The notes under the pieces were generated by a model. That model worked only from the letters and a program-made list of their open reading frames with translations, was not told the origin of the DNA and did not search any database. DNA of 39,112 bases from a virus, in IMG/VR virus record IMGVR_UViG_3300028549_000989, positions 1 through 39,112 of that record. One strand, written 5' to 3'. The position numbers were made by a program, and so were the translations under genes. Positions 3,102-39,112 of the stretch are shown piece after piece. Numbering within the stretch: the first letter of the stretch is position 1; every line of letters begins with the position of its first letter.

Positions 3102-3232
3102 TGGTTTTTTTAAGTGAAGATGACTTTTATGGGACAGAGGCGGAGCAAATATGGGACACGTATGAGGACTATATGAACTCTTATATAGGATATTATGAAA
3201 GTATTATGGAGGAGATTAGATATGATGGGTAA
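3101..3232 (+). CDS. Small acidic hypothetical protein (43 aa)
   Basis: GGAGG 7 nt upstream of the ATG, which overlaps the previous stop (TAATG). D/E/Y-rich. Confidence 0.35.
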   Translation: MVFLSEDDFYGTEAEQIWDTYEDYMNSYIGYYESIMEEIRYDG

Positions 3233-3431: not shown

Positions 3432-3537
3432 TGAAAATAAATATAAAGAAACATTTAAGATACAAATAATAACAACAATTGTTATTTTAGGTGTATGTTT
3501 TATGTTTATCTATGGTGCTTACAGTGTGTATAATTGA
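3412..3537 (+). CDS. Small membrane peptide (41 aa, one hydrophobic helix)
   Basis: AAGGAGG at 3396-3402, 9 nt before the ATG. Product contains IITTIVILGVCFMFIYGAY. Confidence 0.4.
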   Translation: MKTYGTNENKYKETFKIQIITTIVILGVCFMFIYGAYSVYN

Positions 3538-3681
3538 AACATTTAAAGAACATTCAAAAGGTTATATGATACATTTAGTAGCACTATTATTGATAGCATT
3601 TGATGTATGTCTTATATGTTGTATGTGAATAACTATGTGAATAACTTTTAATGTTTTGAAACCTTAAATAAATTAAGAGAA

Positions 3682-3710
3682 GTTTATGCTATAAGTCGCA
3701 ACCTAAGATA
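3682..3710 (+). promoter_or_regulatory. Putative phage-RNAP promoter, copy a (GTTTATGCTATAAGTCGCAACCTAAGATA)
   Basis: One mismatch to the copies at 13464-13492 and 34940-34968. All three are + oriented. Contains CTATA as in T7/SP6/K11 promoters. Confidence 0.5.
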
Positions 3711-3846
3711 GGGTGCCGTTAAAGTACTCATGTAATGCATCTATAATAGAGTTTTAAAAGGTACTTTATATGGTCTATTAAAGATTTATCTATAATAGTA
3801 ATCTTTTAAAGACTTTGCTTTATATAATATCTATATAAGAGTACTT

Positions 3847-3913
3847 GTAAAGACTCATGTAAAGACTCATGTAAAGACTCATGTAAAGACTCATGTAAAG
3901 ACTCATGTAAGGA
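3847..3913. repeat. 12-bp tandem repeat GTAAAGACTCAT x5 plus a partial sixth unit
   Basis: Perfect units at 3847, 3859, 3871, 3883 and 3895. A degenerate copy AAAGTACTCATGTAA lies near 3720. Confidence 0.9.
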
Positions 3914-3959
3914 GGACTTTGTTTTTAATACAAATAAAAAGTAAAACATCTAAGGATAA

Positions 3960-3979
3960 CTTGTAAAGATATCTTTATA
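3960..3979. repeat. 20-mer CTTGTAAAGATATCTTTATA containing the 14-bp perfect palindrome TAAAGATATCTTTA; identical copy at 35210-35229
   Basis: Exact 20-nt identity between two non-coding blocks about 31 kb apart. Confidence 0.85.
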
Positions 3980-4085
3980 AGAATTATTTGTTTTGTATTA
4001 TTTAATAAGTTGTATTCATTTAAAGGGCGTTTAAAACGTTTTTAAATGAAAGGAATAGAAAGATATAGGTAAAGGTGCGTTTGAT

Positions 4086-4120
4086 GCTTGTAGGTATCTT
4101 AAAACGCTTTATATGATGTA
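4086..4120 (+). promoter_or_regulatory. CTTGTAG..TATAT box, + orientation, 26 nt upstream of ATG 4147
   Basis: GCTTGTAGGTATCTTAAAACGCTTTATATGATGTA. Near-identical inverted copy at 32943-32978. Related copies at 33026, 33115, 33196, 36541 and 24923. Confidence 0.45.
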
Positions 4121-4146
4121 TTATAAAACAAAGGAGGAAAACATTT

Positions 4147-4467
4147 ATGGATTTATTAGAAAGAGTATTTAAAGATGCTATTAAAAGTATCATTAAAGGA
4201 TATCAATTAAGTGATGAGGTAAGAGAGATACAATATATAGATAGTATGTTAAGCAGTAGTGTAGCAGATGCGTTTATTGAGTGTTCTTTTAAAGGTGTTT
4301 ATAAGACGCTTAATAAGAATGATAGAGATAGACTTGTAAAGAAACTTGGAATGACTTTTTATGATGCTATAATATACATAGACAGTGTAAGCAAAACAAC
4401 GGACATTTATGGAACTAATAAGGAAACATTGATGATAACATTTGAAACAAAGGAGGACAATGTATGA
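4147..4467 (+). CDS. Hypothetical protein immediately upstream of the RNAP gene
   Basis: AAGGAGGAAAACATTT RBS. The stop overlaps the RNAP start (ATGA). Confidence 0.6.
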   Translation: MDLLERVFKDAIKSIIKGYQLSDEVREIQYIDSMLSSSVADAFIECSFKGVYKTLNKNDRDRLVKKLGMTFYDAIIYIDSVSKTTDIYGTNKETLMITFETKEDNV

Positions 4468-6932
4468 AAGGAACAGTAGAAAAGCAACTTGAAATAGAAG
4501 AGCAGATAAAGGAGGAAGCAATTCAAAAATACTTATTAGATTTAAGTAATGCTATAAGCCAAAATAGATTCTCTCAGACCAATGAGGGTTTTTATTTATT
4601 GAAAGCAACGTTAAATAAATATGAAGAAGCATTAAATACTTTTTTAGATACATCGTATAGAGGACAACTTGAAAAGGATAAGAAGTTATTGTTTTTAATG
4701 TTTAATAAGACAGATGTATTAGCACTATCTGTATTGAATGAAGTGATAAACAGTATAGGTTCTGGTTCAAGCATAGCAGTAACATCATTAGCATTAAAGA
4801 TTGTGAGAGAGTTAAAGAAAGTAGCGATGCATAAGAATATAACGCACGATAATCCAAAGTTCATAAGTTATCTTGGGACGGAGTTTAAAAGAGCATCTAA
4901 GAGTAGAAAGGATGTATTAATAGCGAAGCATTTAAAGGACTTAAAAGACTTTGATGTATATAATAAAGATACAAAGATAGCAACACGTATAGGTGCTATG
5001 TTATTGGATGTATTAGAGAAGAGTGGAGCGAATATTATAGAGAAATTTACTATAATAGATGGTGTTAGAACTATATATCATTATAGATTAACACAAGAAG
5101 CTAAGGAGGGCTTATTAAAATTAGGTAGGAATGCGTTAGGAAATATTATGACGAATGCTAATAGGCTTCCTATGATTGTTCCTCCTGTTCCTTTTGATAA
5201 TGATACATTGAAAGGAGGCTATTATAAGTATCCTATACCATTAGTAAAGGCTATTCATAAGGAGCATAGAGCATTCATTAAAGGAAAGGATTACAGTAAG
5301 GTTATACCAGTTGTTAATAAACTACAAGCGGTGCCTTGGAAGTTTAATAGTAGAGTTATAGATGTTATGACAGATATCTTTGAAAATAATATGTTAGACC
5401 CACGAAATAGAAGCAAACTCCCTAAGTTATTTGGAGGGCTTCCAACAGCGTCAGTGTATAAGGTAGATGAATTAGTAAAGAAAGAAGAGTTTGGACGTTT
5501 AAAGAATGGCTGGGAACTTGGAAAGGAAGCATTTCATAGTTATACAAAGGCTAAGAATGAGATGTATATATTATTAGACAAAGAGATGGGAAATAGATTA
5601 GCATTGATGTTTGCACTTAGTGTATATACAAAGATGTGTGATTATGATGCTATATATTTTCCTCAACAGTTAGATTATAGAGGACGTGTATATCCACATC
5701 CTACATTTGTAAGCATCCAACAGCCATCTTATATAAAGGCTATGTTAGAGTTTGCTGATGGAGAAGTATTAGATGCAGTAGGTATGGATGGTTTAAAGAT
5801 ACATCTAAGTAATTGTTTTGGAAATGATAAGGCACCATTTGATGAACGTATAAAGTTTATTGAAGATAACTTAGAAGACATTTTAAAGACAGCACAAGAC
5901 CCAATAGAGCATATCTTTTATTGGACACAGGCAGATAGTCCTTTTGAATTCTTAGCAGGATGTTTTGCGTTAGATGATGCTTTAAAAGGGCTTCCTGTAA
6001 CGCTTCCTATACAGTTAGACTCTACGTGTAGTGGTATCCAGATGTATTCTGGATTATTATTAGATGAAGAGGGAGCGTTAGCAGTGAATGTTATAGGAGA
6101 TACAAGACAAGACATCTATGGAAAGGTAGCAGATAAAGTTAATTCTTATTTAGAACTTGGAGAGTATCCTCAAATGATTGAATTTAAAGACTCAGAAGGA
6201 GCAGAAAGAATTGTATCTACAATAATAGAAGCAGAGAGTATTAAAGGAAAGATTAAAAGGGCACACGTAAAGAAAAACGTTATGACACTGCCTTACAATG
6301 CTTCTTTTAGAGGCATGCAAGACCAAGTAAGGGCAGACTTTGAAGACATAAAGTTTAATGGAGATGCTTTTTGGAAAGGAGAGTTTTGGGTTGTTGTTAG
6401 ATTGTTAGCAACATTGAATAGTAAAGGTATCTATGAAATCGTTAAAGGTGCTGTAAAAGGTCAAGAGTATTTCAAAGACTGTGCTAAGGCTCTTAAAAGA
6501 CCTGCTACTTGGCTAACACCTATATATAATCTTCCTATTATGCAACCAGCATATAAGACAGATACACATATAGTGCAGACCTTAATAGGACGTCTAAGTG
6601 TTCAATACTCTACGGATGAATTAGATAGAAGAAGCCAAGTAAATGCAATAGCACCTAATATAATACATTCAATAGACTCTACGGTGCTTTATGGTACAGT
6701 AGATAAGTTTAAAGAAACACATATAGGAACTATACACGACTGCTTTTTATGTCATCCTAATTATTGGAGAGACATGCAGGAAGCATTTAAAGATGCTTAT
6801 ATAGAAATTATGGAAAGCAATCCAATGGAGTTCATAGGAAGACAATTAGACCCAGAAGGTCTTATAGAAATACCTATGATAAACACCTTAAATTTAAAAG
6901 ATGTGAAAAACTCTAAGTATATTATATCTTAA
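4464..6932 (+). CDS. Single-subunit DNA-dependent RNA polymerase (T7 gp1-like)
   Basis: 822 aa. LDYRGRVY, LDSTCSGIQMYS, KKNVMTLPYNAS, PNIIHSIDS and GTIHDCF align with T7 RNAP DWRGRVY, FDGSCSGIQHFS, RSVMTLAYGS, PNFVHSQDG and LIHDSF. Confidence 0.95.
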   Translation: MKGTVEKQLEIEEQIKEEAIQKYLLDLSNAISQNRFSQTNEGFYLLKATLNKYEEALNTFLDTSYRGQLEKDKKLLFLMFNKTDVLALSVLNEVINSIGSGSSIAVTSLALKIVRELKKVAMHKNITHDNPKFISYLGTEFKRASKSRKDVLIAKHLKDLKDFDVYNKDTKIATRIGAMLLDVLEKSGANIIEKFTIIDGVRTIYHYRLTQEAKEGLLKLGRNALGNIMTNANRLPMIVPPVPFDNDTLKGGYYKYPIPLVKAIHKEHRAFIKGKDYSKVIPVVNKLQAVPWKFNSRVIDVMTDIFENNMLDPRNRSKLPKLFGGLPTASVYKVDELVKKEEFGRLKNGWELGKEAFHSYTKAKNEMYILLDKEMGNRLALMFALSVYTKMCDYDAIYFPQQLDYRGRVYPHPTFVSIQQPSYIKAMLEFADGEVLDAVGMDGLKIHLSNCFGNDKAPFDERIKFIEDNLEDILKTAQDPIEHIFYWTQADSPFEFLAGCFALDDALKGLPVTLPIQLDSTCSGIQMYSGLLLDEEGALAVNVIGDTRQDIYGKVADKVNSYLELGEYPQMIEFKDSEGAERIVSTIIEAESIKGKIKRAHVKKNVMTLPYNASFRGMQDQVRADFEDIKFNGDAFWKGEFWVVVRLLATLNSKGIYEIVKGAVKGQEYFKDCAKALKRPATWLTPIYNLPIMQPAYKTDTHIVQTLIGRLSVQYSTDELDRRSQVNAIAPNIIHSIDSTVLYGTVDKFKETHIGTIHDCFLCHPNYWRDMQEAFKDAYIEIMESNPMEFIGRQLDPEGLIEIPMINTLNLKDVKNSKYIIS

Positions 6933-13464: not shown

Positions 13465-13498
13465 TTTATGCTATAAGTCACAACCTAAGATAATAAAT
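13464..13498 (+). promoter_or_regulatory. Putative phage-RNAP promoter, copy b, filling the 38-nt spacer after the nuclease gene
   Basis: 35 nt identical to 34940-34974. Starts on the last base of the upstream stop codon. Position is analogous to T7 phi6.5. Confidence 0.55.
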
Positions 13499-16494: not shown

Positions 16495-16501
16495 GGATGC
16501 T

Positions 16502-16555
16502 TATGGGCAGTCAAGTCTTACCTTGTCTGGTGTCTGCCCATAGTTCCAGACAGGG
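16502..16555 (+). promoter_or_regulatory. GC-rich interleaved double stem (pseudoknot-type topology) in the capsid 5' UTR
   Basis: TATGGGCAG (16502-10) pairs with CTGCCCATA (16534-42). CCTTGTCTGG (16521-30) pairs with CCAGACAGGG (16546-55, one G-U). Confidence 0.5.
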
Positions 16556-16613
16556 TATTACTTAAAACAGTCCAAGAGACTATAAATAATACAAATATAA
16601 GAGGTATATAAAA

Positions 16614-24922: not shown

Positions 24923-24948
24923 AAGGTATTACAAAATATTATATGTGT
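24923..24948 (+). promoter_or_regulatory. Diverged CTTGTAG..TATAT-type box upstream of the internal-virion-protein operon
   Basis: AAGGTATTACAAAATATTATATGTGT aligns with AGGTATCTTAAAATGCTTTATATGATGT. Confidence 0.3.
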
Positions 24949-31100: not shown

Positions 31101-32321
31101 ATGTCTTGGAGAGTTGCTAACTCTTTATCTGCTTTTCAAGCATCCAGATTGCTTGGTATGACAGCATTAGTTCAAACTACTGAGCTTGCTTCAACAGTTG
31201 CTGGTATAGGCTTTAAAAAGTACTTTACAATGACAGGTAGTAGAAACAGTTTAAGACCTTCATTGGAAGCTATTAAAACTACTTTATATGAAGGGGATGG
31301 TACTATAAACAACTCTTTTGCTAAATCTTTACACCAAATGGGATATCTAAGTAATATGTTGTCTCCAACAGAGAGCATAAAATATGGTGACTTTGGACAA
31401 AACGTTATGGCGAATTCAGTTGAAAAAGGAATCTCTAAGGTAGCTACAAATGTTCTTAAATATGGTGGTATGCTTCCAGCACTTCACGTACAAGAAGTTG
31501 TAGTAGCACAAGGAGCTATGAGATTGATAGAAGAATCTTTAAAAGATACAATATCAGAAGTAACAACTAATAGATTAGCACGTATGGGCTTATCTGTTCA
31601 AGATGCAAGAAAACTTTCTTTGGAGCTTCAAAAAGCAACAGATGACAAGTTAGAGACATTTGATTTATCTAAACTTTCAAAAGAAAGCTTGGAAAAATAT
31701 CAAGTGGCTGTTAATAGACTTATGAATGAAGTTATGATTAAAAATGATAGTGTTCATTTACCTGCTTTTATGAAGGACTTAAATCCTCTTACAAAGGTTA
31801 TGACACAATTCTTTAAGGCTCCTTTAATAGGAACAAATATATTATTAAGAAGAGGATTATCAGAAGAACACGCTGCTTTCTTTACTTCTATTGCTACTTC
31901 TGTTACTGCTTATATGTTCTTACAATGGACATATGAAGAATCTAAGGTAGCTCTTGGATTGATTTCTGAAAGTGAGCGTAAATTTGATATCTTTAATAAT
32001 CCTGATGATTCTTTAAATCTTTTTATGAAAGGTTTTGGATATACAGCATCATTGGGTGCTTTCACATTAGGATATGATATAGTAGCTTCATTAACACCTC
32101 TTCAAAGATTAGGTGCTACATCTGAATACAGAGGAGATGGCTTAGTAGAAATTGCTGGACCAACTGCTGGTATGATAGATGATTTATTGAAAGTTATATA
32201 TAAACAAACTAATGGTGAGCCATTAGATGACAGAGATTATAAGGTATTAGCAAATACTTTACCTGGTATCTCTTTACCATACATTAGAGATGTTATGTAT
32301 GGTTTATTAGATTTAGATTAG
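28179..32321 (+). CDS. Internal virion protein C (T7 gp16-like by size and order)
   Basis: 1380 aa (T7 gp16 is 1318 aa). G/A-rich hydrophobic stretch near residue 150-210. No transglycosylase motif recognised by eye. Confidence 0.65.
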   Translation: MYEKMKEEGGLITSSEDLLKRRQEEVDKTLAEQKKLGDATLKDYFMAYNPSSIAIFNPETQDSLKDMFERTPIDRNGDTFKEAKKVLGDALVESIYASSNNNSQFEHRVLAMKAQQDPMKRVEADNGFENILYGLPAMLTTPGSLVTLPFAGVKASIGLVSTIGKSAVIGAGLGAVSEGLDASVEAGLGMQTDVSDRALIGAAFGGVLGAAISPWATRNARRELALKEAYDAEKNNADMFEIVDDASGIPHIKFTKETEKVKREIFFAKDSDEYKKEYNKYNSVYESNLELYTKAVDDYKAIDVKTDKTVIEIQSQLDKVKESLKAMPDNKTYLESKIKDKFSYMPPLEVRTTKEVKKTTLKDIIKKETVSYSYEERLALAKKNIPENIKEKTLGFDSYLSKSKASIDRLKKSIAEIKDVKYKGKKRYTKEDTEKLFELENTLTKTEADYGIKKAERDKIERTLLEKELKKVPTTYVKETKTGEKETIEEILNVEKTKKQLENEAKADVNRQLANFNKNINKKKEELLKEQKIKKDLLLKTQKEYKEKLEKEKKDVLTYKEEQKSVVDALKPKEKAEYFKEFKAPSRFIEEEVETGKTLIEGIRDIQKLKKIFGDNKVAGVLGEILNKFTDFFGSEVMKLLESDNYIIRNIGLTISNPVKTLKDSKGRTIINKETIEDKKNMLKRHFGELTNEVMPEYKKALQNGLVKDEEDFYTQIYYQYSEINLAQRKEAMKIANDIAIKEDIDIMKAYTKAFNDLQTTFPKNSPYLKSLEAFHRYNNNILDEAKQAGIKELEHVTNNKVYLQTQFDKKALNNMESSRLQEILFKSMREAPEYSTLTNEMLKEGAVEAAEILKNMAFNDMLLMKSFVLTKAPMSSNLLHKTLFLDPKYASEILKDNMIDLTHSYDYKMTGRIAVQSKFNTYEINDILDTVRKSIMEQHNGAVPKKYESEIQAIQLLIDEMLGYRQIAKDGDRMSWRVANSLSAFQASRLLGMTALVQTTELASTVAGIGFKKYFTMTGSRNSLRPSLEAIKTTLYEGDGTINNSFAKSLHQMGYLSNMLSPTESIKYGDFGQNVMANSVEKGISKVATNVLKYGGMLPALHVQEVVVAQGAMRLIEESLKDTISEVTTNRLARMGLSVQDARKLSLELQKATDDKLETFDLSKLSKESLEKYQVAVNRLMNEVMIKNDSVHLPAFMKDLNPLTKVMTQFFKAPLIGTNILLRRGLSEEHAAFFTSIATSVTAYMFLQWTYEESKVALGLISESERKFDIFNNPDDSLNLFMKGFGYTASLGAFTLGYDIVASLTPLQRLGATSEYRGDGLVEIAGPTAGMIDDLLKVIYKQTNGEPLDDRDYKVLANTLPGISLPYIRDVMYGLLDLD

Positions 32322-32334
32322 GAGGAAAAATAAT

Positions 32335-32649
32335 ATGGCAAAAGATAAAAATAAGGATGTTATAATAGCAACACCAGAGGAAGTAGTAAATGCTCTTCCT
32401 GCTGTTACTTCAAAAGCATCTATAAATAAACTTAATAAGTTGCATGATATGCTTGCTAATTACTTTTTAGATGTATTAGAAACTGGTGAAGATACTATAT
32501 CAAGTGGTACAATAACAGCTATGAATACTTTCTTAAAAAATAATAATGTAGGTCTTGATATAATACCACAAGATCCATCATCTAAACAAGAAAGCATTAC
32601 ATATAGAATAGATAATATACTTAGACAAGAAATAGAATATAAAAAATAA
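32335..32649 (+). CDS. Terminase small subunit candidate (T7 gp18 position)
   Basis: 104 aa; assigned by synteny only. Confidence 0.4.
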   Translation: MAKDKNKDVIIATPEEVVNALPAVTSKASINKLNKLHDMLANYFLDVLETGEDTISSGTITAMNTFLKNNNVGLDIIPQDPSSKQESITYRIDNILRQEIEYKK

Positions 32650-32666
32650 AACAAAGAGGTAATAAA

Positions 32667-32942
32667 ATGAAAACATTTGACATAACACATATGGTACAAT
32701 TAGATGCTGCTGTATCTTTAACACATACATTTACAGAAGAAGAAAAAGAAAAGTATGCTTATTTTACAATAAATACATATGATAGAGGCACTGTAACTGA
32801 TGGTGTTAATTATTTAGACGTATCTTTAAATGGTTTGGATGCAGCAGTTCCATTGATGGATAACTTATTATCAGTTACATTAAGTAATGAGATGAGTGAA
32901 AATCCTTATACACCTAAAATTGTATTTATGTATAAAGACTAA
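32667..32942 (+). CDS. Hypothetical protein
   Basis: AGAGG RBS; 91 aa. Confidence 0.5.
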   Translation: MKTFDITHMVQLDAAVSLTHTFTEEEKEKYAYFTINTYDRGTVTDGVNYLDVSLNGLDAAVPLMDNLLSVTLSNEMSENPYTPKIVFMYKD

Positions 32943-32978
32943 TACATCATATAAAGCATTTTAAGATACCTACAAGGC
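32943..32978 (-). promoter_or_regulatory. CTTGTAG..TATAT box, inverted orientation, abutting the stop codon of ORF 32667-32942
   Basis: The reverse complement GCCTTGTAGGTATCTTAAAATGCTTTATATGATGTA is nearly identical to 4086-4120. Confidence 0.45.
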
Positions 32979-33025
32979 ATTATCTTTATTTAGACAACAA
33001 TTTATATGTCTTTAAAAGAAAACGT

Positions 33026-33057
33026 CTTGTAGAGCCTTTAAAAGCTCTTATATAGAT
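33026..33057 (+). promoter_or_regulatory. CTTGTAG..TATAT box, + orientation
   Basis: CTTGTAGAGCCTTTAAAAGCTCTTATATAGAT shares CTTGTAG, TTAAAA and TTATAT at the same spacing. Confidence 0.4.
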
Positions 33058-33069
33058 AACATATAAAAG

Positions 33070-33092
33070 TATTCAATAAATGAAATTGAATA
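33070..33092. other. Hairpin TATTCAAT-AAATGAA-ATTGAATA between the convergent boxes
   Basis: 8-bp perfect stem seen directly. Confidence 0.5.
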
Positions 33093-33114
33093 TAAAAACA
33101 TTCAAAAACATAAA

Positions 33115-33149
33115 ACATCGTATAAATCATTTTAAGATACATACAAGGC
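33115..33149 (-). promoter_or_regulatory. CTTGTAG..TATAT box, inverted orientation
   Basis: Reverse complement reads GCCTTGTATGTATCTTAAAATGATTTATACGATGT. Confidence 0.4.
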
Positions 33150-33195
33150 TTTAAAAGTTTTAAATGATATCTTTTATCAGATTTCTTTTAAAACG

Positions 33196-33236
33196 CCTTT
33201 AAGGTGCTTTAAAATGATTTATACAGCATATTATAG
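33196..33236 (+). promoter_or_regulatory. Diverged CTTGTAG..TATAT-type box directly upstream of the terL RBS
   Basis: CCTTTAAGGTGCTTTAAAATGATTTATACAGCATATTATAGG aligns with 4086-4130, at a similar distance from the box to the GGAGG RBS. Confidence 0.35.
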
Positions 33237-33249
33237 GAGGAAACATAAA

Positions 33250-34938
33250 ATGCCAATGACAGATGAAGAATTAAAGGAAATATTAACAGAATTTGGAGTG
33301 TATCTTAATTATGTGTATTCATTTATAAATACACCAAATGCTACACCTTTACAGATGCGTTTAGCAGATATCATACAAGAGGCTCCTTCAAGGCTTATCT
33401 TAGAAGCAGCACGTGGTGTTGGTAAATCTTGGATAACAGCTGTATATGCTTCTTGGAGATTATTAAGAGATAAAAATGAAAAAGTTCTTATAGTATCTGC
33501 TAATACAGAAAAAGCAAAAGAGATAGCAAGCTTTCTTAGAAGATTATTTAGTGTTGTCCCTATATTGAAACACTTAGAACCTTCAAAAGAAATAGGTGCA
33601 GGAACAGATAGAAGAGCTTTAAAATACAGAGATAGTGCTACCGCATTTGACGTTAAAGGATGTGACATAGCAATTGCTCCTTCTGTTGCTGTTGTTGGTA
33701 TCTCTGGACAACTTACAGGGAAACGTGCTACGTTAATAATAGCAGATGACGTTGAAGTTCCTAAAAACTCCTTTACAAGCGGTATGAGAGAGAAACTTAT
33801 AAATCAAGTTAAAGAATTTGAAGCTCTCCTAATACCAGATAAACCATCTACTGTATTATTCTTAGGAACACCACAGAGTATGGAAAGTATCTATAATAAA
33901 CTCCCTTATGAAACTATTGTGCTTCCTGCTATGGTTCCTGATAAACCAGAACTTTATAATGGTAAATTAGATCCTTGGATACTACTTCAAGGACCAGCAG
34001 GAACTCCAACAGATAAAATAAGGTTTCCTACACATATCCTTGAAGAAAGAAAAGCTGGTTATGGTCTTGCAGGATTTAGATTACAATATATGCTTGATAC
34101 AACACTATCAGATGCTAATAAGTTTCCTTTAAAGTTCAAAGATATGATTACTTATCCATTGGACAGAGAAGAAGCACCAGCAACGCTTACATATGTAGGT
34201 ACAAGAGACTATATCATTGAAGATATAAGTCATTCAGGATTCACTCATGATTTCTGTGTGAAGCCTTTAAGAGTATCTTCTGAATACTTTAAATATGATA
34301 AAAAGATTATTGCTATTGACCCTTCTGGTAGAGGCTCTGATGAAACTACATATGCTATCTTAGGTGTTCTAAATGGTAATGTATTCTTATTAGATGTTGG
34401 AGGAACACGTGACGGTTATTCAAGTGAAGCTTTATTATTCTTAGCACAAAAAGCTAAGGACTATAAAGTTCATGAATTGGTCATTGAAAAGAACTTTGGT
34501 GATGGTATGTTCTTAGAACTATTAAGACCAGTATTAAATGTAGTGTATCCTGTTAAAGCTTATGAAGTATCTTCAAAAGGTCAAAAAGAAGTACGTATTA
34601 TAGATATAATAGAACCATTGACATCTAATCATAAATTGATTATCAATCAAGACATCTTTATTAGAGAATATAATGAAGCACAACAAGACATTGGAAATAT
34701 GCCTTATACATTCACTTATCAATTCTCTCATATAACCAAAGAAAGAAAATGCTTAGAACACGATGATAGACTTGATGCGGTAGCTATTGGATGTGCTTAT
34801 TTACAAAACTTAGTAAGCATCTCAGCAGAAGAAGCATTAGAACAATACAAAGATGAAATGCTTCAAAAGTTCCTTGATGAAAAGATTTATGGTGCTTCTA
34901 ATAATACATCTAATAATAACTTTTTAAAGAAGTTTTGA
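33250..34938 (+). CDS. Terminase large subunit (T7 gp19-like)
   Basis: Walker A-like RGVGKS. Size (562 aa from ATG 33250) and end-of-late-region position fit T7 gp19. AGGAGGAAACATAAA RBS favours 33250 over track start 33214. Confidence 0.85.
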   Translation: MPMTDEELKEILTEFGVYLNYVYSFINTPNATPLQMRLADIIQEAPSRLILEAARGVGKSWITAVYASWRLLRDKNEKVLIVSANTEKAKEIASFLRRLFSVVPILKHLEPSKEIGAGTDRRALKYRDSATAFDVKGCDIAIAPSVAVVGISGQLTGKRATLIIADDVEVPKNSFTSGMREKLINQVKEFEALLIPDKPSTVLFLGTPQSMESIYNKLPYETIVLPAMVPDKPELYNGKLDPWILLQGPAGTPTDKIRFPTHILEERKAGYGLAGFRLQYMLDTTLSDANKFPLKFKDMITYPLDREEAPATLTYVGTRDYIIEDISHSGFTHDFCVKPLRVSSEYFKYDKKIIAIDPSGRGSDETTYAILGVLNGNVFLLDVGGTRDGYSSEALLFLAQKAKDYKVHELVIEKNFGDGMFLELLRPVLNVVYPVKAYEVSSKGQKEVRIIDIIEPLTSNHKLIINQDIFIREYNEAQQDIGNMPYTFTYQFSHITKERKCLEHDDRLDAVAIGCAYLQNLVSISAEEALEQYKDEMLQKFLDEKIYGASNNTSNNNFLKKF

Positions 34939-34939
34939 T

Positions 34940-34974
34940 GTTTATGCTATAAGTCACAACCTAAGATAATAAAT
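34940..34974 (+). promoter_or_regulatory. Putative phage-RNAP promoter, copy c, immediately after terL (T7 phiOR-like position)
   Basis: 35 nt identical to 13464-13498. Starts 2 nt after the terL stop. Confidence 0.55.
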
Positions 34975-35209
34975 AATATTGAGGGGGCATCCTAAGAGCT
35001 GACGGGGATAATACAAAGAAACATTGTATTGTCTTTTAAAGGCACTTAGAGCTCCTCAAATGTTACTTATTATGTTCCTTAAATGGAGCATAATTTGAAG
35101 CATTTGAGGAGGGGACACCCTAAGAAGCTTCAAAAGATAATTCTCATATGATTCTTTTAAAGAGCTTTATAAAGCTACCGCTTTACATAAATACAATAAT
35201 AATGTATAT

Positions 35210-35229
35210 CTTGTAAAGATATCTTTATA
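35210..35229. repeat. Second copy of the 20-mer CTTGTAAAGATATCTTTATA (palindrome TAAAGATATCTTTA)
   Basis: Identical to 3960-3979. Related AAAGATATCTTT at 35888-35899; half-sites at 35485 and 35592. Confidence 0.85.
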
Positions 35230-35240
35230 TGCTCATCTTT

Positions 35241-35299
35241 TATAGATACTATAATAGCTCATACTAAGTCCCGTCAGAGTACCTATTATAGTATCTATA
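35241..35299. repeat. 17-bp perfect inverted repeat TATAGATACTATAATAG / CTATTATAGTATCTATA with 25-nt loop
   Basis: Arms at 35241-35257 and 35283-35299, verified by reverse complement. Confidence 0.9.
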
Positions 35300-35961
35300 A
35301 AGGATACTTATAAAACTTCATTTAAAGAGTCTTTAAAGATGCTTCCTATATTCCTCCTGTTAGGAAGTATCTTTAAATGCTCACATTAAAGGATTAACCT
35401 TGTAATGATTTACTTTACATTATATTTCATATAAAGTAACAATCATATAAAGTACTTTACAAGTACTCATAAAACTCTTTAATAGATATCTTTTTGTGTA
35501 TCTCTTTAAGCTTATCTTTAAATGATGCATCATATAGATTTATATGTATCCTTATAAAGACGGCGTTTAAGGTTCCTTTAAGGTTCCTTGAAAGGATATC
35601 TTTATGTGTATTCTTATAAGGAACTTGAAAAAATCATCAGAAAAATTCTCGTGAGGAGACCCTATTCAGTTCTTGGGATAAATCCCCTAAGGGGCTTAAT
35701 AAAGTATTATATACAGATGTTAATATAGTATTTTATAGATATCTATCTAAGGTATCTTTATAAGTTAATCCTTAGTGGATTTTAAGGACGCTGGGAGAAA
35801 ATCTTTTAAGGATACATCTAATAGATTGTTATGTTAAGTTGTATATCATTTAAAGAATCTTATAAGAATGCATTGGAAGAATCTATTAAAGATATCTTTT
35901 AATAATCTATTGATGTATCTCATCTGATAGGGCAAACCTTAAAGGAACCTTAAACTGATAA

Positions 35962-36039
35962 AGCATTTAAAGCAACCTTAAAGGAACCTTAAAAAGAATA
36001 AGCATTTAAAGCAACCTTAAAGGAACCTTAAAAAGAATA
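35962..36039. repeat. Perfect 39-bp tandem duplication
   Basis: AGCATTTAAAGCAACCTTAAAGGAACCTTAAAAAGAATA at 35962-36000 and again at 36001-36039. Confidence 0.9.
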
Positions 36040-36222
36040 AGCCTTATATGTTATATTTTGTTATTACTTATTAGATTCTTTTAAAGATAACTTTTTCAAG
36101 AACCTTAAAGGAACCTTAAAAAGAATAAGCCTTATATGTTATATTTTGTTGTTCCTTATTAGATTCTTTTTATGTTATCTTATGTTATTTTTTATTAGAT
36201 TCTTTTTATGTTATATTTTGTT
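36013..36222. repeat. Nested direct repeats: a 50-nt unit at 36013-36062 and 36101-36150; TTATTAGATTCTTTTTATGTTAT at 36156 and 36192
   Basis: Exact identities read directly from the sequence. Confidence 0.85.
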
Positions 36223-36540
36223 AGATTCTATTAAAGATTATTAAGGGACTTTTTTAAAGTTCAACCCTTTCAAGAAACCTTAAAGGAAACTTAAACGTAT
36301 AACCTTAAAGGAACCTTTCAAGAAACCTTAAACGGATAATCTTTCAAGGAAACTTAAAGGAACCTTAAACGTATAACCTTAAAGGAATCTTAAAGGGATA
36401 ACCTTTCAATGTTTTATACAATAATAAGTATAATCTTTAAAAGATGTTTAAAAAGATTTATTAAAAGATAACATAAAATGACGCCTTAAAAGGCTTTTAA
36501 TTGTTTTATATAATAATTATAAGGTGTCTTTATTTGCGTG

Positions 36541-36566
36541 CGTTGTAGGTATCTTAAAATGCTTTT
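36541..36566 (+). promoter_or_regulatory. CTTGTAG..-type box, + orientation, at the start of the right-end cassette
   Basis: CGTTGTAGGTATCTTAAAATGCTTTT matches the core of 4086-4120. The upstream AAGGTG..GCGT flank is also similar. Confidence 0.4.
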
Positions 36567-36605
36567 AATAAGGTATCTTTTGAATGTATGGTATTGTTGT
36601 TTTGA

Positions 36606-36683
36606 TGCTATAAAAATATTTATCAAATAAGTTGATTAAATAATCCGCCTAAAATAACATTAAGTTTATTTTTGTGCTATAAT
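36606..36683 (+). promoter_or_regulatory. Two extended -10 promoter-like elements (TGCTATAAA 36606-36614; TGCTATAAT 36675-36683)
   Basis: TGnTATAAT pattern, rightward orientation, no ORF immediately downstream. Confidence 0.4.
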
Positions 36684-36997
36684 TACTACATTAAAAGACC
36701 ATCGTGTTTTTTAATCTTGGCTTTTGCCTTGCCTTTGGGGGTTTCTTATGTTTTCTTTATCTTCTCTTTTTGGTGCTTCTTCTGAGGCAGTTGTTGTTGT
36801 TAATGTTATAGACGGTTTTTTATGTGTTTTTTCAGGTGTTGTTTCTTCTTTTGAAGATGGTGTTTTTTCTTTTGTTGATGGGTCTTCTCTTGATTTAGAG
36901 GAGGCTATTGTTTCTTTTAATATATCTATTTCTCTTTATAAAAATAGAGAGAGTTATTCAATTGGCTTTGCTTCTTCTATTGTTAATTTATAATTTT

Positions 36998-37041
36998 CTT
37001 ATTTCCATAAAATAAGATTATTTCTTTTTTTATGCTATAAT
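36998..37041 (+). promoter_or_regulatory. Early-promoter-type module: palindrome CTTATTTCCATAAAATAAG (36998-37016), 19-nt spacer, TGCTATAAT (37033-37041)
   Basis: Same upstream palindrome and AATTTTCTT flank as the tandem early promoters at the genome ends. Confidence 0.5.
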
Positions 37042-37082
37042 ATGTTTAGTTTTTGATCCTTTAATTAAAAAGGATATTTTTT

Positions 37083-37126
37083 AAAAAATAGGGTGCTCTC
37101 CAAGCTGGGAGTATTCTATTTTTTTT
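37083..37126 (+). terminator. Terminator-like hairpin about 45-90 nt downstream of the 37036 -10 element
   Basis: AAAAAATAG (37083-91) pairs with CTATTTTTT (37116-24). Inner stem CTCC/GGAG. A T-run follows. A second GGGGGTATTCTATCTTTTTTTT motif lies at 37151-37172. Confidence 0.4.
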
Positions 37127-37221
37127 AAAAAATTGGCTGGGCTGCGTCCTGGGGGTATTCTATCTTTTTTTTAGCTGCCCTTTTATTATTATTATTATTC
37201 AACATTGCGGAGGTTAAAACA

Positions 37222-37584
37222 ATGGAATCTATAAAAAACACAAAAAAACAAAATGCGGTGCTTTTAGCGAACATTTTAGGAACATTAGAAAAAGGTGAGG
37301 CTTTAACTGCTTTTATTAAATATTCGGATGCGGGTGCCCGAGTGATGCTTTCAAAATCAGAGGCTACTTCTTTTACTGCTTTTGGTGGCGGTTATAACCG
37401 TGAGGGTTTTGCTTTGGCAGAATTGTTTAATGTTGCTTTAAAAGTTAAGGGTTTAAATGTTAAACTTGATGGTTTAGTATCTACTTATTCTTTAATGAAT
37501 CAATTTGAGGCTATAAGTGGTATCTCTTGCTCAATAAGCGATGTTAATAAATCTTTAAGTGCTATATCTTTTGAGGTGCTTTAA
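37222..37584 (+). CDS. Hypothetical protein with FGGGYN motif; paralogue of ORF 1881-2285
   Basis: GGAGG RBS. Motif similarity to the ORF 1881 product. Codon usage looks more T/G-rich than the core genes. Confidence 0.6.
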   Translation: MESIKNTKKQNAVLLANILGTLEKGEALTAFIKYSDAGARVMLSKSEATSFTAFGGGYNREGFALAELFNVALKVKGLNVKLDGLVSTYSLMNQFEAISGISCSISDVNKSLSAISFEVL

Positions 37585-37585
37585 T

Positions 37586-37825
37586 ATGTTTGCTTTCATG
37601 ATTGCTTTTGATGAGTTTAAGGCTTTAAAATATCTTTTAGGTATATTTTTAATTTGTTTAATAGTATCCTTTTGGTATCCTTTTGGGACGCCAATAGGAG
37701 AGTTTGTTGGTGCGATTGGTTTGCTTTCTGGGTTGCCTTTTGTGCTTTTTCTTATACCGATGGCAGTTGTGGAAGTTGCTTTATATGTATATACAAAAAT
37801 TAAAAATAAAATAATAGGAGAATAA
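37586..37825 (+). CDS. Small integral membrane protein (2-3 TM segments)
   Basis: GAGGTG 7 nt upstream of ATG 37586, in frame with track start 37559. Hydrophobic throughout. Confidence 0.55.
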   Translation: MFAFMIAFDEFKALKYLLGIFLICLIVSFWYPFGTPIGEFVGAIGLLSGLPFVLFLIPMAVVEVALYVYTKIKNKIIGE

Positions 37826-37826
37826 T

Positions 37827-38030
37827 ATGTTAAAATTAAATAGAAAAGAGGAAGAAATGATTGCTGCATTCTATGCGGCGAATGAGGTTAAACATTACGG
37901 TGCACGTGCTGGAATCACTGGGGCAAATAGATGGAACTTTAATAATAACAATGACGATGAGGTTTTATTAGATGCACCAATGGGTGCAGATTTTGATGAT
38001 TATAATGATGCACTTGACGAGGACCTTTAA
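37827..38030 (+). CDS. Small protein with acidic C-terminal half
   Basis: AGGAG RBS. C-terminus DDEVLLDAPMGADFDDYNDALDEDL. Confidence 0.55.
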   Translation: MLKLNRKEEEMIAAFYAANEVKHYGARAGITGANRWNFNNNNDDEVLLDAPMGADFDDYNDALDEDL

Positions 38031-38702: not shown

Positions 38703-38827
38703 ATAGTAATATAATATCAACAATTAAAAGTTATTAAACTTTTTAATTAATTTCTTTTGAAATTAACAAGAAAGAAATAACATTTAATTAAGATTTATGG
38801 TATAATATCAACAATTAAAAAGGTTAA
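38703..38827 (+). promoter_or_regulatory. Two further copies of the early promoter core (TATAAT 38710-38715; TGGTATAAT 38798-38806), each followed by ATCAACAATTAAAAG
   Basis: The conserved 21-nt core TATAATATCAACAATTAAAAG is repeated. Confidence 0.5.
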
Positions 38828-39006
38828 TATCTTTTTAAATAATTTTCTTCTTTCTTATTTCCAAAAATAAGATTAAGTTTGAAAGTTATGGTATAATATC
38901 AACAATTAAAAAGGTTAATATCTTTTTAAATAATTTTCTTCTTTCTTATTTCCAAAAATAAGATTAAGTTTGAAAGTTATAGTATAATATCAACAATTAA
39001 AAGATA
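38825..39006 (+). repeat. 91-bp tandem repeat (2 units) carrying palindrome plus -10 promoter modules; unit 2 starts exactly at the DTR boundary 38916
   Basis: Units begin at 38825 and 38916. They differ at one base in the TGG/TAG preceding TATAAT, then diverge after AATTAAAAG. Confidence 0.85.
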
Positions 39007-39112
39007 CAATAAAGTAATCTTTTAATAGCCCATTAGATGCAGAAAGAAAAGAAGCATCCAACGAACAACCTCCGCAACTTTAAAAGGGAGCATTTGGTGG
39101 GCTATTAAAAGA
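38916..39112. repeat. Right copy of the 197-bp direct terminal repeat
   Basis: Identical to 1-197. Confidence 0.75.

Follow-up and report, generated by a model that had tools for sequence, protein, structure and literature searches.

The box and the region upstream of terL

In this study we describe a box of about 33 nt that occurs in four copies of alternating orientation between the open reading frame (ORF) 32667-32942 and the gene terL (33250-34938) in the IMG/VR virus record IMGVR_UViG_3300028549_000989. The whole stretch of 39,112 nucleotides, here called the window, has a G+C content of 30% and identical ends (1-197 = 38916-39112), and we therefore regard it as the complete, ~38.9-kb genome of a T7-like podovirus. 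PHROGs names a T7-type RNA polymerase (4464-6932, E 3e-158), a primase/helicase, a DNA polymerase, a portal and a major capsid protein, besides terL and a candidate small terminase gene (terS, 32335-32649). All credible genes are on the plus strand, in agreement with a preliminary description of the window that had been made from the bare sequence.

The same phage, with an identical terL-upstream region, is present in two independent assemblies (JGI 3300033562 and Logan SRR21758068); the three assemblies of the phage are identical to one another. The nearest terL relatives are only 60% identical, and the closest cultured match of the polymerase, in Roseobacter phage CRP-143, is 39% identical, with the hydrothermal Lau218 phages next. 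From the source names of the relatives (Campylobacterales and a mis-binned 'Ignisphaera') and a match in a Sulfuricurvum metagenome-assembled genome (MAG) we infer that the hosts are sulfidic or hydrothermal Campylobacterota. A literature search on T7-like phages of Campylobacterota returned nothing relevant.

The four boxes upstream of terL are present at the positions and in the orientations in which they had been described. Their core reads GTG-sCTTsTAGGTrCyTTAAAAyGmTT; at no more than 3 mismatches, the 27-nt core matches the window four times against 0.00 expected from shuffles. A 33-nt position weight matrix (PWM) finds six copies at 26-46 bits, with a maximum of 15 bits in shuffled sequence. 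Exactly six copies are significant, at 4086 (+), 32977 (-), 33025 (+), 33148 (-), 33196 (+) and 36541 (+), with PWM spans of 4087-4119, 32944-32976, 33026-33058, 33115-33147, 33197-33229 and 36542-36574 on the same strands. The same six were recovered by nhmmer at E<=1e-6, the next match having an E of ~0.05. The two extra forward copies at 4086 and 36541, which had been noted before, are thus significant by both methods. A weak copy suggested at 24923 is not significant (E 0.6), as it matches only ~12 nt in the tail of the copy at 33025, and neither PWM nor nhmmer finds a box between 4120 and 32943. Gaps of about 47-57 bp had been given for the four boxes and we measure 46, ~55 and 46 nt; the small hairpin reported between the middle pair is real as well. 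Hence the box is a real, non-random cis-element: the initial observation is confirmed, and its interpretation is supported in part. The features of the region are as follows.

32943..32978, minus strand: reverse box A, abutting the stop codon of ORF 32667-32942; 36/37 identical to the copy at 4086
32979..33024, no strand: spacer A, 46 nt, self-complementary, forming the top of hairpin 1
33025..33058, plus strand: forward box A, the most diverged copy (26 bits)
33069..33093, plus strand: small AT-rich hairpin of 9 bp, in unit A's decayed duplicate of the region of the terL ribosome-binding site (RBS) and start
33114..33149, minus strand: reverse box B, found by core match, PWM and nhmmer
33150..33195, no strand: spacer B, 46 nt, self-complementary with 16-nt arms (88%)
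33196..33229, plus strand: forward box B, 6 nt 5' of the terL RBS (AGGAGG, 33236-33241); terL starts at 33250

Two tandem copies of one unit

The distance between the two reverse boxes is 171 bp, and so is that between the two forward boxes. The region therefore reads as a pair of tandem units, which we compared by aligning 32935-33110 with 33106-33281.

32940..33281, plus strand: two tandem 171-bp units (A, 32940-33110; B, 33111-33281), each composed of reverse box, spacer, forward box and RBS/terL start, with unit A as the copy that has decayed
Identity between units, reverse boxes: 90%
Identity between units, forward boxes: 70%
Identity between units, spacer: 35%, which is chance level
Identity between units, tail: 52% (p~0.0002); the tail of unit B is the terL RBS with the first codons

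Since the alignment of the units extends through the terL-start tail, the ancestral state was a single unit of reverse box, 46 nt, forward box, RBS and terL. The convergent middle pair and the hairpin at 33069-33093 fall where the duplicated terL start has decayed. The divergent, convergent, divergent design that had been proposed is accordingly a by-product of tandem duplication, and the comparison with related genomes that had been suggested for it gives the same answer: the relatives have one inverted pair, and the four-box layout occurs in none of them. What alternates is a duplicated hairpin unit and no designed array.

Conservation in T7-like relatives

Locus searches with terL in IMG/VR and in metagenomes returned mostly distant relatives without the box. 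The exact window-type box has no match in IMG/VR, and a degenerate pattern was needed to find the copies of the relatives. With it, the core was found again in T7-like contigs with a terL protein that is 60% (L019, L020, L022) or only 42% identical (L028, L029). The box of the window is 81-84% identical over 37-38 nt to those of L020 and L028, and terL DNA among the relatives is 66-69% identical. Diverged versions are found in the more distant relatives L057-L059 and L001.

The positions of the box are conserved too. A reverse copy stands directly 3' of the last gene before terL in L019, L020, L022 and L028, and the order at the terL site is a full reverse copy, 6-50 nt, a full or partial forward copy and the RBS, where partial forward copies retain at least GCCTTsTAGG. 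Forward copies precede terL in L020 and L029. The whole module of reverse copy, ~46-50 nt and forward copy also lies ahead of other genes, at 1089 and 11857 in L020 and at 1899 in L061. Single forward copies stand ahead of a small gene and the RNA polymerase operon in the window (4086), in L022 (9285) and in L061 (2232), and another forward position, 1.6-1.9 kb 3' of terL, is shared by the window (36541) and L029 (2178). The latter position resembles that of T7 phiOL.

4086..4120, plus strand: single forward box at the end of the non-coding region 3432-4146, followed by ORF 4147-4467 and the gene for the RNA polymerase (4464-6932)
36541..36574, plus strand: single forward box just past the terminal repeat arrays, ahead of TGnTATAAT-type promoter-like sites

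Counting the unpaired copies in T7-like contigs gives 7 forward (4086, 36541, L022-9285, L061-2232, L029-2178 and one copy each inside the RNA polymerase ORFs of L062 and L063) vs 2 reverse (L028-9766 and L062-2279). Several forward copies finish 26-40 nt 5' of a start codon. As had been proposed, the forward copies of the window head gene blocks (before the RNA polymerase operon, before terL and after the terminal repeat arrays), which fits a role as promoter or in the 5' untranslated region (5'-UTR). The spacing from box to RBS, which had been compared for 4086 and 33196, is similar at the two sites without being equal (46 nt vs 39 nt). Because the single copies are conserved, mostly gene-oriented and placed at the head of gene blocks, the box has a sequence-specific role of its own.

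The 715-bp non-coding region 3432-4146 that ends in the 4086 box contains a perfect tandem repeat (12 bp x 5.4) of TGTAAAGACTCA at 3846-3910, as well as the sequence CTTGTAAAGATATCTTTATA, which recurs at 35210. A hairpin of 16 bp is found at 4015-4050. The region is a possible origin or control region.

Folding of the rightward transcript

Each unit folds as an imperfect hairpin of ~110 nt, and the whole four-box region folds with a z-score of -7.0.

32946..33057, plus strand: hairpin 1 (reverse box A, spacer and forward box A in a rightward RNA), -29.1 kcal/mol, z -6.0
33120..33224, plus strand: hairpin 2 (reverse box B, spacer and forward box B), with a 17-bp perfect basal stem, -34.2 kcal/mol, z -8.7

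Both are stable intergenic sense hairpins of about 20 bp or more, as would be expected of RNase III sites. Each relative that we examined has a hairpin, despite differing loop or spacer sequences (z -1.6 to -8.7). The spacers are unrelated in sequence between units, yet every one of them is self-complementary. Taking the gene-to-gene interval of 13 units from 9 genomes, which are partly non-independent, we obtained a mean z of -4.3 for the sense vs -2.8 for the antisense strand, the sense strand folding better in 10/13 (Wilcoxon p=0.003). In an alignment of six units, compensatory G-C/C-G swaps occur at two stem positions. Taken together, the preference for sense over antisense folding, the compensatory swaps and the self-complementarity of unrelated spacers favour selection on a hairpin in the rightward transcript.

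No Rfam family matched anywhere in the window at its gathering score, and the box region gave only sub-threshold hits to miRNA-type hairpins. Intrinsic terminators (a G+C-rich stem followed by a T-run) number 0 in 32300-33400, and there is no T-tract.

Resemblance to promoters

The boxes had first been described with a TTG..N16..TATAT layout, but their likeness to a sigma-70 promoter is weak: TTGTAG agrees with TTGACA at 3/6 positions, and a consensus scan does not call the boxes. Promoter-like sites in the box region are at chance (11 vs 8.3+/-3.2). A TAtaAT-like hexamer at box positions 26-31 is found in the copies of the window, L020, L061 and L022; it is absent from the reverse-type and the other forward-type copies of the relatives. 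As for a promoter of the T7 group, the window does encode a single-subunit polymerase and has six near-identical copies of the box. Copies of such a promoter should all be gene-oriented and precede the middle and late blocks; here 2/6 are reversed, and the stretch from 4120 to 32943 has none.

A second motif, TATGCTATAAGTCACAACCTAAGATA at 3685, 13467 and 34943, was noted in the same genome. In the form TATGCTATAAGTC(A/G)CAACCTAAGATA it spans 3685-3710, 13467-13492 and 34943-34968, all on the plus strand; the first site precedes the 4086 box, the second opens the structural block and the third comes directly behind terL. In L020 (9286) and L022 (3479), terL is followed by a related motif, T(A/T)TGCTATAA(G/T). 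The second motif could be a promoter of the phage polymerase, placed like phiOR, or else a host promoter of the extended -10 type whose last base is defective.

Several other identities were tried and rejected. A sigma-54 promoter (GG-N10-GC) is out by inspection, the spacing being 11 nt and the -12 GC often GA. A mimic of a CRISPR repeat is out as well, the genome scan having found no arrays, and so is a motif of host genomes, where hits are no more frequent than by chance. Nor is there support for short ORFs of 22-34 aa in the region, since several copies have ACG in place of the conserved ATG, which is therefore no start codon. Pfam and PHROGs gave no matches for the small ORFs adjoining the boxes.

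If the box is a promoter, it might be possible that every complete copy is active, so that the reverse copies, which are complete in the window, would fire leftward, as had been proposed, antisense to ORF 32667-32942, terS and the genes for internal virion proteins, or would block late transcription by collision or by bound polymerase. A promoter functions wherever it is placed, and the reverse copies of the window are the best matches of the family, the 32977 copy being 36/37 identical to the 4086 copy including its TATGAT hexamer. In the relatives, too, the full-length copy beside the upstream gene is usually the reverse one, with a conserved tail of its own (ATTCTAGTG). However, leftward firing would yield antisense tRNA in L022, where two reverse copies flank 11 rightward tRNA genes. 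It would also give sister phages opposite outputs at one and the same site, which carries a full reverse and a partial forward copy in some and a partial reverse and a full forward copy in others. The folding is biased to the sense strand, and the window has no minus-strand gene. We thus regard leftward promoters as unlikely.

Copies in unrelated phages and signs of recombination

A degenerate 22-nt pattern gave 11 hits in 185,579 bacterial and archaeal genomes, which is about chance, and most were in coding sequence; one is real and lies beside a tRNA gene in a Sulfuricurvum MAG. A blastn search of the box against cultured phages (INPHARED) returned chance hits only. Since the scan of genomes is at chance level and the box is found in phage contigs, it is phage-borne and not a promoter or operator of the host. 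In the Sulfuricurvum contig (L044, 2977-3329) the box stands ~250 nt downstream of a tRNA-Met that adjoins groES/groEL, and this is probably the edge of an integrated element. This contig is the sole clue to a host that we found in genomes. Several Fur-box-like sequences of the GATAATGATTATC type were seen in the non-coding DNA after terL in L020 (9840-10070), and a similar one, ATTGATAGTTATTATCAAT, follows the L044 box.

Some contigs with the box are not T7-like. L030 (45% G+C) has copies in a divergent control region, two of them forward and 172 bp apart with a degenerate reverse copy between them. Others are L031, L034 and L035 (about 52-54% G+C; RecT, YqaJ and terminase_3), of which L034 has 52% G+C and RecT/YqaJ, the 107-kb contig L033 with PhuZ, and L024, where the box adjoins a GIY-YIG endonuclease gene.

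In L022, 11 tRNA genes (646-1543) are inserted between terS and terL, and the array is bracketed by two reverse boxes that form 36-nt direct repeats (556-584 and 1597-1624). Across the relatives the interval from terS to terL holds 0-4 extra genes. Two copies of the window that are 29 kb apart are 36/37 identical. Finally, L062 (8340-8368) and L063 (5720-5748) have a forward-type box with a ATGATTCTAGTG-type tail inside the RNA polymerase ORF, where it replaces ~13 codons in a variable stretch, unlike all other relatives there; this in-ORF box may be an internal signal or a gene-conversion patch.

Such observations raise the question whether the box belongs to a selfish or recombinogenic palindromic cassette, comparable to MITEs (small transposable elements with inverted repeats) or to promoter-early stem-loops (PeSLs), which spreads between unrelated phages, is tolerated in intergenic hot spots and has regulation as a side product. 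The module of ~115 bp (inverted repeat, ~47 bp, inverted repeat) is multi-copy, with three copies in L020 and two in the window. It occurs in contigs as different as L030, L034, L033 and the Sulfuricurvum MAG. The direct repeats around the L022 tRNA cassette, the variable terS-terL interval and the box in place of codons in L062 and L063 fit this reading, and the near-identity of distant copies suggests gene conversion. Parallels exist in the PeSLs (PMC4122927) and in Correia elements, which make promoters and RNase III hairpins (PMC2649163). However, the positions of the box are conserved at deep divergence (terL 42% identical), unlike those of free insertions, and degenerate units keep the 10 nt on the loop side and not the outer termini, the opposite of what transposon ends do. 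No target-site duplication was seen, and no transposase or partner element is known. A purely selfish cassette therefore appears rather improbable to us. We would give somewhat more room, although still as an unlikely proposal, to a mobile regulatory cassette: the ~115-bp module might pass between T7-like, temperate and PhuZ-encoding phages that are unrelated but all infect sulfur-oxidising Campylobacterota, as a portable start signal for a shared phage factor or polymerase. It might also serve as a point of recombination through which accessory genes and tRNA arrays are moved and coding sequence can be overwritten.

Packaging and the probable genome ends

It had also been suggested that the boxes are an orientation-independent protein-binding site, for example a terminase or pac-like site beside the terminase genes. 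Boxes occur before the RNA polymerase operon, in early regions of the relatives, in the RNA polymerase ORF of L062 and L063 and in contigs that are not T7-like, and the likely genome ends are elsewhere, so the terminase version is not supported. The non-coding 1.8 kb at 34940-36720 contains many 11-nt CCTTAAAGG/CCTTTAAGG units, forward at about 35566-35600 and in reverse arrays at 35937-36400, with higher-order repeats of 39, 88, 36 and 37 bp. By analogy with T7 this region is probably the genome termini or a concatemer junction: the CCTTAAAGG arrays cluster at 35.9-36.4 kb as the CCTAAAG arrays of T7 cluster at both T7 ends, and for this reason we place the likely physical ends there and not at the boxes.

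More generally, a protein might act on the box as DNA in either orientation, be it at a terS/pac site (the weakest form of the idea), a transcription-primed replication origin, a phiKMV-like nickase site or the site of a regulator. The copies are roughly equal on both strands across genomes, and the spacer, despite its unrelated sequence, keeps to 45-50 bp twice in the window, three times in L020 and also in L028 and L061; this near-constant length could be a geometry on DNA instead of a property of the RNA. The terminal arrays have 11-nt CCTTTAAGGTT units that look like the box in its 5' half, and nick sites of the phiKMV type (CGACxxxxxCCTA/CTCCGG) have a CCTAC core in common with it (PMC3517423). 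Known phage nick sites, however, are all on a single strand (PMC3517423), and a packaging role is at odds with the copies found in early regions and ahead of the RNA polymerase operon; the likely ends are 2-3 kb away. The box is not palindromic and has no candidate binding protein, the neighbouring small ORFs being without family matches, and a preference for folding on the sense strand is not expected of a pure DNA site. Overall we think a DNA site of this kind improbable.

A model for the box

The explanation that we favour, tentatively and with somewhat less than even confidence, is that the forward box is a rightward start or 5'-UTR signal, that the inverted copies fold read-through late RNA into a processing or insulating hairpin before terL, and that this unit was duplicated. 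The box would be a sequence-specific cis-signal of this phage lineage, acting in the direction of the genes. Most likely it would serve as a transcription start signal, used by the single-subunit RNA polymerase of the phage or by the host polymerase together with a phage factor; a 5'-UTR operator is less likely. With an inverted copy ~46 nt to the left of the forward box, a long late transcript reading through from the structural genes would fold into an imperfect hairpin of ~110 nt before the terL RBS. This hairpin may be a processing or insulating element of double-stranded RNA, the likeliest enzyme being host RNase III, whose Campylobacter version has reportedly been characterised biochemically in a paper that is said to mention the T7 R1.1 substrate. 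Cleavage would detach the upstream message, make it more stable and leave terL with an mRNA 5' end of its own, and transcripts starting at the forward box, having no left arm, would stay uncut. In the phage of the window the whole unit, including the terL start, was tandemly duplicated, which gives the four alternating boxes. The copies, the duplication, the conservation of sequence and position, the hairpins and the sense-strand bias are observed; initiation at the forward box, the polymerase that uses it and cutting by RNase III are inferred.

A number of observations weigh against this model. For the two hairpins of the window, folding is about as good on one strand as on the other, and the stems of some relatives, with just 10-14 bp, are short for an RNase III substrate. 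Neither of the single copies, at 4086 and 36541, has a significant partner to pair with in the 700 nt around it, so that not every member of the family forms a hairpin, as a family of RNase III sites would, and without a pairing partner these copies are unexplained by any RNA-structure role. Within the pairs of the relatives, conservation is often higher for the reverse than for the forward copy, a difference that hairpin formation alone leaves unexplained. On the side of initiation, the complete genome has only four forward copies, and none precedes the replication or structural blocks, where a general promoter of the phage polymerase would be expected; the second motif is an equally good candidate for a phage promoter. 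The box is present in L030, L033 and L034, and the parts of these contigs that we examined hold no T7-like polymerase. Moreover, the box read in reverse fits the T7/SP6 promoter architecture about as well (AT-rich -17/-13, C-T-A-n-A, purine start), and for that reason it might act in that direction instead.

Whatever its precise role, the box gives a handle on transcription and mRNA processing in an uncultured T7-like clade of sulfidic and hydrothermal habitats that had no known regulatory signals. An element of 24-33 nt that outlasts protein divergence, keeps its positions and is common to unrelated phages is a candidate promoter for a new single-subunit RNA polymerase, and the two might be usable as an orthogonal expression pair. 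It also offers candidate RNase III sites and a possible regulatory cassette passed from phage to phage.

Other features of the window

A tandem repeat of 91 bp (~4 copies) occupies 38707-39006 and 65-91 of the window, each copy with TATGGTATAATATCAACAATTAAAAG, which resembles a promoter of the extended -10 type and precedes the early genes (289 onward), like T7 A1-A3. As the 197-base overlap of the ends lies inside this repeat, it looks like an assembly circularisation and not like a physical terminal repeat. The AT skew is negative only at 36001-38000 (-0.18 and -0.13); this segment has T-rich ORFs, one of them with a TTG start, and a 44-bp x 2.1 tandem repeat (37077-37171), and gene calls across it are uncertain. 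The 119-nt gap 5' of the major capsid gene (16495-16613) holds a G+C-rich hairpin (ATGGGCAG...CTGCCCAT) that has no relation to the box family. Among the relatives, the DNA polymerase of L062 (12356-14738) is apparently split into two ORFs by an Endonuclease_7 gene.

Comparison with known systems

The record of T7 annotates the minor E. coli promoters C, at 3113 and immediately 5' of gene 1, and E, at 36836 and immediately past gene 18; phiOL is located close to the left end and phiOR beyond gene 19. When we folded T7, stable hairpins appeared at both the C and the E spots, and at phi3.8 the start region of the promoter paired with a downstream inverted partial copy. We take these hairpins to be the RNase III sites R1, R18.5 and R3.8 reported by Dunn and Studier (1983). 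The R1/R18.5 system and the boxes are alike in forming a repeated, sequence-conserved intergenic family in a T7-like genome, with hairpins just 5' of the RNA polymerase gene and directly after the small terminase gene, and in their promoter-like sequences, host promoters being annotated at the matching spots of T7. The arrangement in L019 is like that of phi3.8 and its inverted partial copy. Unlike the T7 sites, the hairpins seen in the window, L020 and L028 are far larger, at ~110 nt including a spacer of 46 nt, the family includes unpaired single copies in both orientations, there is no sequence homology, and cleavage is here a prediction.

The promoters of the T7 group (T7, T3, SP6, K11) share with the box a contiguous conserved stretch of ~23-33 nt in near-identical copies, their occurrence in phages that encode a T7-type polymerase, their absence from bacterial genomes beyond chance, and an A/T-rich stretch followed by an invariant G. 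The box differs in that its copies are few, on both strands and missing before the middle and late blocks, in that it also occurs in phage contigs without a known T7-type polymerase, and in that no described promoter matches its sequence.

The PeSL cassettes of T4-like phages (PMC2839356, PMC4122927) resemble the box as small, repeated, intergenic stem-loops with promoter-like motifs. PeSLs flank variable accessory genes as recombination points, and the box may do likewise, to judge from the variable terS-terL interval, the tandem duplication and the L022 tRNA array, the one case of cargo flanked by boxes. PeSLs have a recognisable sigma-70 early promoter and a terminator, whereas the box is a poor sigma-70 match without a T-tract, and it belongs to another phage family. 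Correia elements of Neisseria (PMC2649163) consist, like the box units, of inverted repeats of ~26-33 bp around a short core, with promoter-like ends, and are co-transcribed as RNA hairpins that RNase III can bind or cut, as it may do in the box units. However, Correia elements are chromosomal MITEs that insert freely with TA target duplications, and the box keeps conserved positions in phages with no target duplication seen. The box cassette is unusually conserved for a phage intergenic cassette, and it is spread across phage families.

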